Shown here piece after piece: positions 16,633 through 26,782 of a stretch of DNA of 64,000 nt. The notes below the pieces were generated by a model, which was given only the letters and a program-made list of their open reading frames with translations, was not told where the DNA came from and did not search any database. Position 1 is the stretch's first letter. Each line of letters begins with the position of its first letter. The translations under genes and the position numbers were made by a program. Location: the sequence record OQ174503.1; one strand, given 5' to 3'. This stretch comes from Escherichia phage REP4.

Positions 16633-16911
16633 TTATTCTTTAAATCTAATCAATTTATTCATAGACTTTGAAACTTCTGCACGAACCTCATGTAGGTTTT
16701 TAAGCTGTTCAAGACGCTGCTCATAGTAAGCAATTTCATCTTCTTCGAGACAGTCCTGTGAATCTTCTTTAAGATAACGTGCATAGTCCTGGAAAGCTTT
16801 ACGGACTACTTCCTGGAAGTCATCAAGACTTTGAATTTTCTTAGGAGCAACAGATACACGACGAGGGGCAGTATAATACTCATAACCAAACCCTGCGCTT
16901 AATTGAGCCAT
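16633..16911 (-). CDS. Hypothetical protein (start at internal Met MAQLSAG...)
   Basis: Track ORF 16633..16953 trimmed to begin at stop of upstream gene. Confidence 0.45.
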
Positions 16912-17213
16912 TAATATTTTTCCTCTGGTTGAAACACAGCACGACAAGCCCACATACTAGCTTCTTTGAGTTTCGTTTTAGCAATAGTTAACTGATCGAT
17001 GCTTTCAGCATAATTCTTCGCGAATTCATAGTCTTCACAATTATTTAGCACTTCCCAGAATTCGTCGTATAAAGCATCAAAGATAAGTCCTAAACGAACT
17101 TCAGCGTCTTTGATTGCATTCACTTTACCGATTTTCTCTTCAGTATGGGGCTTATAACCTTTAATGTCTTCAATCATATTTGACTTCCTCACCAGTACAT
17201 AAATCATATTCAA
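16911..17213 (-). CDS. Hypothetical protein
   Basis: 100-aa ORF. Confidence 0.45.
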
Positions 17214-17391
17214 CTAAACGAATAGGTTCATGAATGCCATATCCCTGAACGGAAATTTCTGTCGTAGGATAAATTCCACTAATATCACCCATGTTCCATG
17301 CTTCATTAAATTGCTGTTCGCCTGAATTACTAAACCATTCGGCGAAAGCATTTAGCACATCTTCAGAACCTTCAATAATTATCTTTGCCAT
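17170..17391 (-). CDS. Small acidic hypothetical protein
   Basis: 73-aa ORF. Confidence 0.45.
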   Translation of the reverse strand: MAKIIIEGSEDVLNAFAEWFSNSGEQQFNEAWNMGDISGIYPTTEISVQGYGIHEPIRLVEYDLCTGEEVKYD

Positions 17392-17753
17392 TACAGGCTC
17401 TCAGTAAAGGTACGAGCGATAACGTCGCGCTGCTGTTCCGGAGTCAGAGAGTTAAAGCGAACTGCATAACCGGATACACGGATGGTCAGCTGCGGATATT
17501 TTTCCGGATGCTTAACTGCATCTTCCAGAGTTTCACGACGCAGAACGTTAACGTTCAGGTGTTGACCACCCTCGATTTTAACTGTAGGTTGTGTTTCAAT
17601 TTCAATTTCACGGGCATGCAAACCATAGAAAATTTCTGGGTCTACAAAAGAGTCCTCTTTAAAAGTTTTAGAGACAATAATTCGTGCTTGAATACCATCT
17701 TCAAAATAAATAGTACCTTTATGCGTGCCTTCAAGAATTTGATATGCTTTCAT
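17391..17753 (-). CDS. Autonomous glycyl-radical cofactor (GrcA/YfiD-like; T4 Y06I-type)
   Basis: C-terminal 65 aa ...[60 protein letters not shown] contains the RVSGY glycyl-radical motif and matches E. coli GrcA from memory; DNA of this part is GC-rich. Confidence 0.85.
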
Positions 17754-17760
17754 ATAAACC

Positions 17761-18090
17761 TCAATTAGAAAATAAATTTATCCAAGATTGTTCTTTAATT
17801 AAAAATGGCTCAGAATCATATGCCATTAAACTCTGTGTGATTAGTCCTTTAAAAGGCCCATCAATAAATTCCATAGTAAAATATGGAATTTTATTCATTA
17901 GCCGTGCATTAGGAGCCGTGCACAAAACTCTGCATCCTTTGAATACGCCTTTTTGTAATTTGTATTGCTTAGGATAAAATTCGCTCAAAATGTTATTTTT
18001 TGCTAAAATTTCAAAATGATTCACCAATTTATTTTTAATAGTTTTTGGCGAAAAATAGAGATATTCGAAAAGCTGAGTGTCTGTCATCAT
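17761..18090 (-). CDS. Hypothetical protein
   Basis: Track ORF 17761..18141; start probably at internal Met pair MMTDTQ. Confidence 0.45.
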
Positions 18091-18626
18091 TGCATTCCGA
18101 TTACGAAAAACTGTGGACGAGTAATACCACCAATGCAACATTTAATATTACAGCAGCAGTGTACAGTGTCAATATGGACACTATAAATCTTATCCATATC
18201 AGGAGATTTGACAGGCTCATCAATTATATATAAAATTCGCGAAAGCTTTAAACCTCTGAACTTGCTTCCTTTATTACCGATAAAACTGCGCACAGAATCA
18301 GTAAATAAACGAAAACGTATATCATCATTAGAATAACGCGAAAATTCCTTTTTAATGTTATTTGCAGAAATTTTAGCGTAAGCTGAAGTATTAGAAAGAA
18401 CAATAACTGTTCCGCCATCATACAACCAATTAGCAGCAAAGTTAGTCACAGCAATTGATTTACCGGATTGACGTCCACCGTCTAGTCGAAGTGTGCAATA
18501 CTGTTTAAGTAATTCTTCAAATGGCGGGATATATTCGTTTTTACAAATTTCTTCTACTCTAGCATCAGAATGGTGTGTAAAAGCATTCATCAGGGATAGA
18601 TAAGGACCAGTTAAAAATGTTCTCAT
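18087..18626 (-). CDS. Small P-loop NTPase-like protein
   Basis: 179-aa ORF with Walker-A-like GGRQSGKS and Walker-B-like ILYIIDEP. Confidence 0.5.
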   Translation of the reverse strand: MRTFLTGPYLSLMNAFTHHSDARVEEICKNEYIPPFEELLKQYCTLRLDGGRQSGKSIAVTNFAANWLYDGGTVIVLSNTSAYAKISANNIKKEFSRYSNDDIRFRLFTDSVRSFIGNKGSKFRGLKLSRILYIIDEPVKSPDMDKIYSVHIDTVHCCCNIKCCIGGITRPQFFVIGMQ

Positions 18627-18766
18627 TTCTTCTCTCTAAATTTGGGCCATTCCGTGGCGCATGAATTGTCCATTTCTGTATTTACCCATTACCGCACTTG
18701 GGCTCGACCTTATTACAGGTTGGCGGGAATCCCTCACAGAATCATGAGGTCCAGGTTGTTCCCATA

Positions 18767-19240
18767 TTATTTGAACGATTTAACGTACTGAATAGAACCT
18801 TTACTATTCACGAAAGCGATTTTACCATTTTTATTATACATGGTAGCAGTACGCTGATAGCCATAAGTTTGCTTACCAGATTGATAACCAACTAATGCAA
18901 AATTATCTTCACCCATTTTATTCTGTTTAGCGCGAATGCGTTCATGACCATGTGCCATAAGAACCTTAGCATCACCAGTTGCAATGGATCGACGAGTTTT
19001 TTCATCTTCAACTGTATTAACAAAGTCGTCAAATGAATCAAATTTAGCATGAGATTTATTATACAGTTTTCCATCTACTGCATAATTATATCCCTGTACA
19101 TCCATCTCAACTTCTGTACCATCATCCAATACAGCAGTGATTTTCTGTCCTTTTTTAAATTTCAAAAGATCAGTAAAAGATTCAGCAATAATTTGAGAAT
19201 TAATAGTTGCTTCAGTAATAAATTCTTGATATGTTTTCAT
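18767..19240 (-). CDS. Internal-protein-like head cargo protein with capsid-targeting sequence (MKTYQEFITE|A)
   Basis: N-terminal 10-residue motif matching the T4 IP capsid-targeting sequence and gp21 cleavage context (I-x-E). Confidence 0.7.
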   Translation of the reverse strand: MKTYQEFITEATINSQIIAESFTDLLKFKKGQKITAVLDDGTEVEMDVQGYNYAVDGKLYNKSHAKFDSFDDFVNTVEDEKTRRSIATGDAKVLMAHGHERIRAKQNKMGEDNFALVGYQSGKQTYGYQRTATMYNKNGKIAFVNSKGSIQYVKSFK

Positions 19241-19256
19241 GTGTATCCTTTAATTT

Positions 19257-19574
19257 TTATTCTTTAGGGAAGTTTTTAGAATATGCATCATAAAGCTTAT
19301 TTCCAATACGGCGGAAAACTCTAGCCGCAAAACGATTTTCTGGGTTTTTAATCATGATTTGCATCATATAAGTACCCGCGTCAGAAAGAGCTTCTTCATA
19401 GTACCCGTTAATTTCTTTAAGAGTCCTACGTTTACCACCAGGACCATCAACAGTGATTTTCCATTTACCTGTAGAAGTGCGACTTGGCGGCTCAACTTGT
19501 TCAATCCAGATATAACCGCCTTCTACACGTTGTCCTTGGGCAGATTCTGCAATAAATTCTTTAAACGTTTTCAT
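19257..19574 (-). CDS. Internal-protein-like head cargo protein with capsid-targeting sequence (MKTFKEFIAE|S)
   Basis: 105-aa ORF; capsid-targeting motif; own early-type promoter upstream. Confidence 0.7.
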   Translation of the reverse strand: MKTFKEFIAESAQGQRVEGGYIWIEQVEPPSRTSTGKWKITVDGPGGKRRTLKEINGYYEEALSDAGTYMMQIMIKNPENRFAARVFRRIGNKLYDAYSKNFPKE

Positions 19575-25761: not shown

Positions 25762-25837
25762 TGGTCGAGGCAGTAGGGATCGAACCTACGACCTAGGACT
25801 TAGAAGGTCCTTGCTCTTCCTTCTGAGCTATGCCCCG
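25762..25837 (-). tRNA. tRNA-Arg (anticodon UCU), CCA encoded
   Basis: Manual fold: acceptor CGGGGCA/TGCCTCG, anticodon loop CTTCTAA, T-loop GGTTCGATCC. Confidence 0.85.
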
Positions 25838-25841
25838 TAAT

Positions 25842-25917
25842 TGGGGTGACCGATGGGAGTCGAACCCATGACTACGAGAATCACAATCTCGAGTTCTACC
25901 AACTGAACTACGGCCAC
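25842..25917 (-). tRNA. tRNA-His (anticodon GUG), discriminator C73, CCA encoded
   Basis: Manual fold: acceptor GTGGCCG/CGGTCAC, anticodon loop TTGTGAT, 3' end ...CACCCCA as in bacterial tRNA-His. Confidence 0.8.
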
Positions 25918-26030
25918 ATTAATACCTACTCCAACAATCAAGATGTCTTCACACGAAATTAAGAGAAGAGTGATCAGTTCAACCCTATAATCGCGTCAAG
26001 TAGATATTAATGTGACAGTTGTCACAAATT

Positions 26031-26105
26031 TGGCGGACGTGATAGGATTCGAACCTATAACCAATCGCTTAACAGGCGATCGCTCTGCCATTGAGCTACA
26101 CATCC
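26031..26105 (-). tRNA. tRNA-Asn (anticodon GUU), CCA encoded
   Basis: Manual fold: acceptor GGATGTG/CACGTCC, anticodon loop CTGTTAA. Confidence 0.8.
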
Positions 26106-26109
26106 AAAT

Positions 26110-26196
26110 TGGTGGGGAGTGATGGAGTCGAACCACCCGAGTCGCAATGACAATGGATTTACAGTCCACACCGCTACCTCTACGGGATAACTCCCC
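26110..26196 (-). tRNA. tRNA-Tyr (anticodon GUA), long variable arm, CCA encoded
   Basis: Manual fold: acceptor GGGGAGT/ACTCCCC, anticodon loop CTGTAAA, 87 nt. Confidence 0.8.
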
Positions 26197-26209
26197 TTAA
26201 TTCTTAATT

Positions 26210-26284
26210 TGGTGGCCCTGGGTGGAATTGAACCACCATCTGGCGATTATGAGTCGCTTGCTTGAACCTTCCAGCTACAGGGCC
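26210..26284 (-). tRNA. tRNA with CAU anticodon (T4-type tRNA-Ile reading AUA, or Met)
   Basis: Manual fold: acceptor GGCCCTG/CAGGGCC, anticodon loop CTCATAA. Confidence 0.8.
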
Positions 26285-26285
26285 T

Positions 26286-26361
26286 TGGTGCTGATTGACG
26301 GAATCGAACCGCCGACCTTCTCATTACAAGTGAGTTGCTCTACCTACTGAGCTAAATCAGC
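26286..26361 (-). tRNA. tRNA-Thr (anticodon UGU)
   Basis: Manual fold: acceptor GCTGATT/AATCAGC, anticodon loop CTTGTAA. Confidence 0.8.
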
Positions 26362-26366
26362 AAAAC

Positions 26367-26456
26367 TGGCGGAGGCGATAGGATTTGAACCTATGAGTCG
26401 CCGGAGCGACTGCCGGTTTTCAAGACCGGTGCATTAAACCACTCTGCCACGCCTCC
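26367..26456 (-). tRNA. tRNA-Ser (anticodon UGA), long variable arm
   Basis: Manual fold: acceptor GGAGGCG/CGCCTCC, anticodon loop CTTGAAA; directly follows tRNA-Pro (dimeric precursor arrangement as in T4). Confidence 0.8.
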
Positions 26457-26457
26457 A

Positions 26458-26532
26458 GTCTCCATACAAGGATTTGAACCTTGGACCTCCTGATCCCAAA
26501 TCAGGCGCTCTACCAAACTGAGCTACACGGAG
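26458..26532 (-). tRNA. tRNA-Pro (anticodon UGG), 3' CCA not fully encoded
   Basis: Manual fold: acceptor CTCCGTG/TATGGAG, anticodon loop TTTGGGA; 2-nt spacer to tRNA-Ser. Confidence 0.8.
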
Positions 26533-26542
26533 TAAATTAAAT

Positions 26543-26616
<74 letters not shown>

Positions 26617-26621
26617 AAATT

Positions 26622-26708
26622 TGGTGCGAGAAGTGGGACTCGAACCCACAAGGAAATCATTCCGCAGCATTTTAAGTGCTGTGCCTTTACCAATTTGACC
26701 ATTCTCGC
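26622..26708 (-). tRNA. tRNA-Leu (anticodon UAA), long variable arm
   Basis: Manual fold: acceptor GCGAGAA/TTCTCGC, anticodon loop CTTAAAA. Confidence 0.8.
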
Positions 26709-26709
26709 G

Positions 26710-26782
26710 CTGGGAATAAAGGACTCGAACCTTTGCATCCTGGAATCAAAATCCAGTGCCTTACCAACTTGGCTAATTCCCA
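26710..26782 (-). tRNA. tRNA-Gln (anticodon UUG), U1 start, CCA not encoded; forms a dimer with tRNA-Leu
   Basis: Manual fold: acceptor TGGGAAT/ATTCCCA, anticodon loop TTTTGAT. Confidence 0.8.

Follow-up and report, generated by a model that had tools for sequence, protein, structure and literature searches.

Probable homologous replacement of the radical-domain half of vs.6, a phage grcA homologue, by Escherichia coli sequence in Escherichia phage REP4

The 64,000 nucleotides (nt) of Escherichia phage REP4 that were analysed (OQ174503.1; hereafter the window) contained, on the minus strand at 17391-17753, an ATG-to-TAA open reading frame (ORF) of 120 amino acids (aa), identified in the ORF list and by reading of the sequence, which corresponded to gene vs.6 of bacteriophage T4 and was homologous to host grcA. 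The 3' half of this gene was nearly identical to grcA of Escherichia coli. It is very probable, taken as a whole, that the gene is a vs.6 orthologue, that it encodes a spare glycyl-radical domain, and that its host grcA tract was acquired by homologous replacement within a phage gene that was already there. The elements on which this reading rests were the following:

17391-17753, minus strand: vs.6/Y06I-type gene, phage GrcA homologue (identity to T4T vs.6, neighbours, Pfam, PDB 6OWR)
17391-17573, minus strand: host-derived tract, codons 61-120 plus stop, with two mismatches to E. coli grcA, at 17400 and 17571, and none in its core, 17401-17570
17574-17753, minus strand: 5' half, codons 1-60, AT-rich, diverged homologue of the GrcA N-terminus (hhalign; GC content at third codon positions, GC3, 0.20)
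17466-17480, minus strand: RVSGY motif, residues 92-96 (direct reading; GrcA and PflB alignments)
17389-17393, minus strand: TAATG, in which the stop of vs.6 overlaps the start of the downstream gene vs.5, a phage-type junction (host, TAAGG)

Nucleotides 181-363 of the gene matched all 5,426 complete E. coli genomes of the comparison set at 98.9% (blastn), at a locus annotated as grcA; gene nt 1-180 had no blastn match in those genomes. Aligned with grcA of E. coli SK1144, the last 183 nt differed at 17400 and 17571 only, and mismatches were dense from 17574 upward. Over the core at 17402-17570, identity reached 100% with many E. coli genomes and was 99% or more with 5,156 of the 5,426. Over the 180-nt module (codons 61-120), identity was 179/180 to E. 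coli grcA, 92% to the next species, Citrobacter, and 73-88% to the remaining hosts, which points to Escherichia as the donor. Residues 61-120 were identical to E. coli GrcA residues 68-127 (BLASTP), so that the host-identical protein stretch began at residue 68 of GrcA (YfiD), a few residues inside the structured domain. Similarity ended at the stop codon, after which the phage went on with TAATGGCAAAG (start of vs.5) and the host with TAAGGCTTAAG. Across the whole 64-kilobase (kb) window no other stretch came near to identity with the E. coli chromosome, the remaining matches being phage transfer RNA (tRNA) genes with about 85% identity to plasmid-borne tRNA clusters only.

Base composition changed together with identity. 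The 5' 183 nt had a GC content of 0.33 and a GC3 of 0.20, and the 3' 180 nt had 0.50 and 0.45, respectively (E. coli grcA GC3, 0.43; whole-window GC, 0.36). The tract was in the top 0.8% of the 180-nt segments of the window for GC, and the tRNA cluster and several other regions were equally GC-rich; composition alone as proof of host origin was dropped for this reason, and nucleotide identity is the decisive evidence. A first-pass annotation made from the sequence of the window had described a GC-rich, host-like 3' half matching host grcA, the RVSGY site included, and both descriptions were borne out, the alignment showing near-identity instead of the distant similarity that would have spoken against them. 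The boundary of the host-like stretch, which it placed at about 17588, was found at about 17571-17573, which is about 15 nt less far upstream, and the host-matching C-terminal stretch was of 60 residues (61-120) and not of 65.

The protein was of the GrcA glycyl-radical type, as that annotation had proposed, and like the autonomous cofactors of this family (about 14 kDa) it was small and free-standing. Pfam PF01228 (Gly_radical) matched residues 60-101 with 67.2 bits (cutoff 22.2). The best solved structure was that of E. coli YfiD by nuclear magnetic resonance (6OWR; E = 4.6e-42; residues 22-120), followed by the PflB C-terminus, the module aligning with PflB residues 697-759 (PDB 1H16; E = 4.8e-26), and the formate C-acetyltransferase model TIGR01255 scored 89 bits. 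The glycyl radical is predicted to form at Gly95 of the RVSGY motif (codon 17469-17471), the counterpart of GrcA G102 and PflB G734 (GrcA and PflB numbering from PMC8683613).

Window vs.6 had 97.5% nt identity to T4T vs.6 over 363/363 nt and 99.4% to that of Salmonella phage GRNsp7, and its protein was identical to that of T4T at 119 of 120 residues (T54P). The identical 120-aa protein was present in many Tequatrovirus records, labelled autonomous glycyl radical cofactor or GrcA, and about 1,460 phage records matched window vs.6 in a phage database search. The order of genes around the ORF was that of T4 (vs.8-vs.7-vs.6-vs.5-vs.4-vs.3-regB), and the window is from a Tequatrovirus. The earlier statement that T4 carries such a gene, named Y06I, agreed with this identity and with the shared neighbours; Y06I and vs.6 are presumably one gene, vs.6 being the sole GrcA-like place in the T4T record and the ORF with a Gly_radical domain in PMC1524935. 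Compared with bacteriophage T4 vs.6, the window had the same gene with the same length, neighbours and mosaic structure, and differed from T4T by few substitutions.

The 5' half was AT-rich, as previously noted, but it did not lack resemblance to host GrcA as the first-pass annotation had it. The BLASTP alignment to host GrcA reached back to residue 22, with a 16-residue phage stretch against EARCIVAKAGFAEDEVV. When a profile of T4-type phage N-terminal halves was aligned with one built from 66 distinct sequences of the same half in hosts, the C-terminal module being excluded from both, hhalign gave a probability of 94% (E = 1.2e-7; 47 columns; 32% identity). A joint alignment of 24 host and phage proteins had the common skeleton K..QI...G.I.L.D...AR...SK...ED..V...RE...E..P..VEGGQH, and other phage versions (L111-L116) bridged the host and T4-type N-terminal forms. 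The N-terminal half is thus a diverged GrcA N-terminus and not unrelated phage sequence. The positions within it that have stayed the same over large distances (AR..V.K, ED, RE and P.V) are candidate contacts with cleaved pyruvate formate-lyase (PFL) or its activase.

The bridging versions, together with L123, formed a clade of phages in IMG/VR whose N-terminal half was longer (MKAIQIIDDFSNKRDVHYGDLSGSIWLIEDNKARCLVAKE...) and had a form between those of host GrcA and T4 vs.6. Most of their modules were closest to Pasteurellaceae grcA (78-83%), and for L114 the nearest was Pantoea; this suggests that the phages belong to a different group of hosts.

Mosigvirus, Jiaodavirus, Winklervirus, Slopekvirus and Pseudotevenvirus had full-length homologues of 120 aa in the corresponding place, and more distant versions were present in Krischvirus, T5-like phages and jumbo phages. 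Full-length syntenic copies without the host-like tract were present in Winkler-/Karam-, Slopek- and Pseudoteven-type phages, those of the Winkler-/Karam-type also with a phage-like GC3; these copies are unconverted alleles of a kind that could have been the recipient. When the 180-nt module of each phage copy was compared with grcA of 81 host species, the Tequatrovirus modules of the window, T4T and GRNsp7 were identical to E. coli at 178-179 of 180 positions (92% to Citrobacter) and those of Mosigvirus at 170-177 of 180, and all other phage lineages in that comparison had 73-88% identity to any host.

The gene ended in GAG AGT CTA TAATGGC in other phage genera and in GAA AGC CTG TAAGGC in E. 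coli. The phage-type ending was complete in Mosigvirus and partial in the window, GRNsp7 and T4T, and TAATGGC, with the TAATG overlap with vs.5, was kept in all T4-like copies aligned; a tract extending beyond the stop would destroy the vs.5 start codon. Both crossovers fell within the ORF, kept the reading frame and coincided with stretches of phage-host similarity, with phage-type sequence flanking the tract on both sides, which is the signature of homologous replacement (gene conversion). The two halves of host grcA were about equally diverged among host species, so that the host gene is not itself mosaic and the direction of transfer was from host to phage. This evidence, drawn from sequence comparison, fits homologous replacement inside a pre-existing phage grcA homologue.

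Differences in the last four codons (GAG AGC CTG in the window, GAG AGT CTG in GRNsp7, GAA AGT TTG in T4T) were considered as separate tracts and rejected, point mutations explaining them equally well. Phage EP32a, with 7 differences from E. coli, most of them as in other phage genera, was considered as a case of ancestral patches and set aside as inseparable from later AT-biased mutation.

The proposal of the first-pass annotation that a phage frame had captured part of a host gene was not borne out, in view of the syntenic unconverted homologues, the phage-type terminal codons and the retained TAATG overlap. In its explicit form, a host grcA fragment would have been fused by illegitimate recombination to an unrelated AT-rich phage ORF to give a new chimera. 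The abrupt switch of identity and GC3 in the middle of the ORF and the absence of nucleotide similarity to host in the 5' half would agree with such a fusion, but the N-terminal half was a homologue of that of GrcA, other genera had complete copies with a phage-type 3' module at the same genomic position, and the crossovers were in frame and in similar regions, with phage-type codons and the overlap kept at the 3' end of the ORF. A fusion is therefore highly improbable.

Host grcA is a highly expressed gene, and the protein constraint on the module is very strong: between Cronobacter phage leE and the window there were 23 synonymous and 0 non-synonymous codon differences, and the 60-residue module of leE was the same as that of E. 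coli. Both facts would suit convergence, without any transfer, through purifying selection and host-optimal codons. Protein constraint alone, however, does not give nucleotide identity, as the leE module encoded the same protein with different codons, and other phages encoded the identical module at only 81-84% nt identity. Convergence would also not account for an identity of 179/180 to E. coli beside 92% to Citrobacter, for the specific match of Jiaodavirus to the Klebsiella pneumoniae allele, or for a switch of identity that was abrupt and not graded, and its probability is close to nil. A similarly negligible probability was given to a phage-to-host transfer and to an artefact of assembly or contamination, with host reads joined into a phage contig. 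Chimeric assemblies do occur in general, and nothing specific pointed to one here; the same in-frame mosaic was present in hundreds of independently sequenced phage genomes, T4T included, and host grcA diverged uniformly in both halves among Enterobacteriaceae with a host-like GC3, contrary to a phage origin.

Under homologous replacement, T4-like phages would long have carried a complete, diverged grcA homologue, and in lineages infecting E. coli the part from the Gly-Gly-Gln-His codons to about 4 codons before the stop would have been overwritten by the chromosomal grcA allele of the host. Fragments or intermediates of the host chromosome may pair with the phage gene across the conserved module during infection, the phage copy being overwritten. 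The 5' crossover would fall where similarity between phage and host begins, and the 3' crossover just inside the stop, sparing the vs.5 start. The recombination-dependent replication machinery of T4 is a plausible agent. Relative to unconverted phage versions such as leE, from which the window module has no non-synonymous difference, no residue was altered by the replacement, which may be neutral to selection as far as the protein is concerned.

The gene and its biochemical activity are already known, because rescue by T4 Y06I and conservation of vs.6 have been published. YfiD and T4 Y06I are the two validated spare-part proteins (PMC8683613), and in vitro T4 Y06I received the radical from PFL activase and rescued oxygen-cleaved PFL (Wagner et al. 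2001, as cited in PMC8683613 and PMC13450708). Residues 61-127 of YfiD form the structured radical domain, and residues 1-60 are disordered yet needed for binding to cleaved PFL and for efficient activation (PMC8683613). Gene vs.6, bearing the Gly_radical domain, was conserved in 6 of 6 T4-like genomes (PMC1524935). The spare-part role for oxygen-cleaved PFL proposed in the first-pass annotation agreed with the literature on T4 Y06I (PMC8683613).

Given the identity of 119/120 residues to the T4T protein, the window protein would be expected to receive a radical and to rescue cleaved PFL likewise. It would be expressed by the phage from the vs.8-vs.3 gene block, and the host activase PflA would install the radical on Gly95 in the RVSGY loop. 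The radical-bearing protein would then dock on host PFL cleaved by oxygen at Gly734 and restore the conversion of pyruvate to acetyl-coenzyme A (acetyl-CoA) and formate. Output of fermentative acetyl-CoA, adenosine triphosphate and formate may in this way be sustained when infected cells are exposed to a little oxygen, for instance in the gut.

In comparison with E. coli GrcA (YfiD; TIGR04365/IPR011140; 6OWR), residues 61-120 were identical, with 179/180 nt and the RVSGY loop included, the N-terminal half was homologous, and the published activity was the same (PMC8683613). The phage protein differed in being 7 residues shorter, with an N-terminal half only about 30% identical, and its gene lies in a lytic early-gene block, whereas that of the host lies between ung and eamB.

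Several observations weigh against the combined reading. The NCBIfam equivalog model for GrcA, TIGR04365, scored 154.6 bits with the window protein, under its 170-bit cutoff, and covered residues 20-120 only (E. coli GrcA, 233.9 bits); by this model the window protein is not a full-length equivalog, a shortfall due to the diverged N-terminal half. The recombination mechanism was deduced from the sequences compared, and the terminal four codons, which vary between the window, GRNsp7 and T4T, may reflect point mutation and not different crossover points. A benefit of vs.6 to the infecting phage is presumed, and a role in nucleotide metabolism was suggested for it instead in PMC1524935.

T4-type phages carry their own nrdD and nrdG, and the protein might serve another glycyl-radical enzyme instead of PFL, for example as a spare part or regulator of phage or host NrdD. 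The proposal of a role in nucleotide metabolism was made on the grounds that the Gly_radical domain is also found in NrdD (PMC1524935). The module was, however, identical to that of GrcA, PflB was the closest among full-length enzymes (1H16, TIGR01255), no NrdD model was among the profile and structure matches listed, and rescue of cleaved PFL by T4 Y06I has been published (PMC8683613), so that service to NrdD is improbable.

The age of the tract was approached by comparison of the window with a Mosigvirus-type contig, L098:

vs.7 flank: 71% identity
vs.5-side flank: 68% identity
vs.6 5' half: 89% identity
tract: 169/169 identical

The difference between the tract and the rest was significant (Fisher p = 3e-21). 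Codons 1-60 had 11 synonymous and 6 non-synonymous differences, and codons 62-116 had none. With the tract identical across the two genera and flanks at 68-71%, the tract entered or was refreshed after the divergence of Tequatrovirus and Mosigvirus. At grcA nt 213, Tequatrovirus L093 had G, as in O157:H7-type E. coli, and the window and T4T had A, a single site which hints at different E. coli donor alleles. A neighbour-joining tree built on the 153-nt core placed the modules of Tequatrovirus and Mosigvirus inside the Escherichia cluster.

More generally, the 5' half of vs.6 was 88-90% identical between Tequatrovirus and Mosigvirus (L097/L098, L087, L088), with flanking vs.7 and vs.5 at 65-71%. 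This suggests either that the 'disordered' N-terminal half is strongly constrained or that the entire gene has passed from one genus of phages to another.

A replacement from a second host genus was found in Klebsiella phages. The vs.6 homologue of Jiaodavirus KPV15 had a GC3 of 0.23 in its 5' part and of 0.60 in the module, and encoded the Klebsiella-type LLDAVEH. A 30-mer specific to KPV15 was present in 28 metagenome contigs, most of them with a host-type grcA and several of 100-620 kb. The host-type grcA module was identical to that of KPV15 at 154 of the first 155 nt, and the same host allele agreed at 100% with the intact Jiaodavirus-like contig L181 over about 155 nt, all remaining differences lying in the last ~25 nt, where the phage-type ending was kept. 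The matching host grcA encoded a protein identical to GRCA_KLEP7 (K. pneumoniae complex). In the phage database, 106 records, mostly of Klebsiella and Raoultella phages, matched the Klebsiella allele at 95-99% over grcA nt 202-369 only, and Jiaodavirus grouped with K. pneumoniae with 100% bootstrap in the tree of the 153-nt core.

The Jiaodavirus homologues (KPV15, Mineola, Nispero) had the same gene, position and 5' junction at the GGQH codons as the window, and likewise a host-identical 3' module. They differed in the donor, a K. pneumoniae-type grcA encoding LLDAVEH (window module, LEDAVKH), and in the 3' crossover, at about 25 nt before the stop in Jiaodavirus and about 10 nt in the window. 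With the K. pneumoniae allele in Jiaodavirus, replacement of the module from host to phage has happened at least twice, the Jiaodavirus replacement being, on the sequences compared, independent of the E. coli-type event. In KPV15 itself (L003, NC_055715, 1501-1862) the homologue was split by a 1-nt frameshift into two coding sequences (1501-1650 and 1707-1862), and the near-identical L181 (11766-12128) had an intact 120-aa ORF; the split is either a sequencing error or a pseudogene in that isolate.

It is proposed tentatively, with a probability somewhat short of even, that the radical-domain module is kept in step with current host grcA by recurrent and ongoing host-to-phage gene conversion in virulent T4-type phages. 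The events so far would be from E. coli to Tequatrovirus and to Mosigvirus, possibly separately and from different alleles, and from K. pneumoniae to Jiaodavirus. Three further points weigh against the combined reading: the evidence for different donor alleles rests on the single site at grcA nt 213; the cluster of Escherichia, Tequatrovirus and Mosigvirus had only 41% bootstrap on 153 nt, for which reason pairwise identities were relied on in this case; and the identity of the Tequatrovirus and Mosigvirus tracts could stem from recombination between phages after one event.

In that last scenario, one host-to-phage event would have been followed by spread between Tequatrovirus and Mosigvirus in co-infected E. 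coli, with no recurrent host exchange. The two genera did share the 5' junction ...AAAATT GAA|GGT, and the identity of 89% in the 5' half of vs.6, compared with 68-71% in the flanks, could reflect gene exchange between phages. A shared junction is nevertheless expected, because similarity between phage and host begins there. The tract was the common E. coli allele at 100% in members of both genera beside a 5' half 11 synonymous codons apart, so that any exchange between phages must have been limited to the tract or very recent. The different natural E. coli allele state in L093, and the independent Klebsiella case, in which host-to-phage replacement recurred, also disagree with a single event, which is regarded as rather unlikely.

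Host-matched modules were also looked for with other hosts. For grcA of Salmonella, Enterobacter and Citrobacter no matched phage was found, the best identities being 84%, 86% and 92%, respectively (the 92% with E. coli-type modules). None of 80 IMG/VR copies compared with the 81 host species, outside Tequatrovirus and Mosigvirus, exceeded 91% to any host; L121, the single case at 91% (to a Yersinia allele), was rejected as a phage copy, being a full-length host-type gene. Tequatroviruses isolated on Salmonella, Serratia, Yersinia and Hafnia had the E. coli-type module.

Slopekvirus proteins, at L089 (phiKp_1; 601-963) and L005 (RpM26a; 1501-1863), had the LLDAVEH residues, encoded by DNA about 81% identical to the K. 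pneumoniae allele, and Cronobacter phage leE encoded the E. coli-type LEDAVKH. Host-specific residues thus seem to follow the host even where a recent tract is absent, and the Slopekvirus pattern fits either older conversions or selection for host match. Replacement may be neutral, or may be favoured by host-optimal codons or by matching of host-specific residues.

No description of the mosaic of vs.6 at the nucleotide level was found in the accessible literature; older T4 papers were beyond the search, and an earlier notice is possible. Three points may be new: an old grcA homologue of the phage underwent homologous replacement, the tract is very recent, and two host genera have independently been donors of the module. 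A strictly lytic phage that destroys host DNA nevertheless carries a tract 100% identical to a living host allele and approximately confined to the structured radical domain. If recurrent conversion is true, the tract is a short molecular record of the recent host of a phage lineage, an example being the E. coli allele still present in Tequatroviruses that were isolated on other host genera, and recombination between a lytic phage and the host chromosome occurs naturally and measurably at a defined locus. The vs.6 tract and the Klebsiella-Jiaodavirus case would provide a clean, short and easily assayed locus for the frequency of recombination between virulent phages and their hosts, and the tract might serve to mark which hosts T4-like phages have recently had.

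Mosaics of psbA and psbD in cyanophages are a known parallel, in which a phage-borne host metabolic gene likewise has patches of host-like sequence and composition through homologous exchange between phage and host. Unlike those, the present phages are strictly virulent T4-type phages of enterobacteria that degrade host DNA, the single tract approximately coincides with the structured domain and is 100% identical to the current host allele, and replacement of this one domain involved two genera of hosts as donors and two of phages as recipients.

The vs.7, vs.6 and vs.5 ORFs were all on the minus strand of the window, in agreement with the T4T annotation (denV-regB block). The elements next to vs.6 were:

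17759-17762, minus strand: GAGG, putative Shine-Dalgarno sequence, 5 nt 5' of the ATG
17170-17391, minus strand: vs.5, 73 aa, downstream neighbour (ORF list, T4T annotation)
17761-18141, minus strand: vs.7, upstream neighbour, given as the maximal ORF (ORF list; the T4T-annotated equivalent is shorter)

Promoter-like sites at 16900-19400 did not exceed the shuffled expectation (12 vs. 10.0 ± 3.5), and the terminator scan of the same interval found no terminator-like site.

In Erwinia phage Virsaitis27 (L004, 1501-1872) the protein was of 123 aa and ended in ...TFTKGSNGY in place of ...TFTESL, the 3' end of vs.6 having thus been remodelled in that lineage. The IMG/VR 'viral' contigs L162-L172 carried the 3' end of pflB; these and L121 look like host DNA in contigs labelled viral, e.g., prophage flanks or mis-binning, and not like phage copies. 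Several NCBI records listed the phage protein under Escherichia coli, Salmonella enterica and Shigella sonnei, on contigs of about 165-169 kb, which are probably complete T4-like phage genomes within bacterial assemblies.

Elsewhere in the window, 11 tRNA genes (Arg, His, Asn, Tyr, Met, Thr, Ser, Pro, Gly, Leu, Gln) were found on the minus strand at 25762-26782, a larger set than the 8 tRNAs of T4. The part of this cluster at about 26045-26202 matched, at 84-85% identity, tRNA clusters carried by E. coli plasmids (about 97-110 kb) and did not match the chromosome.

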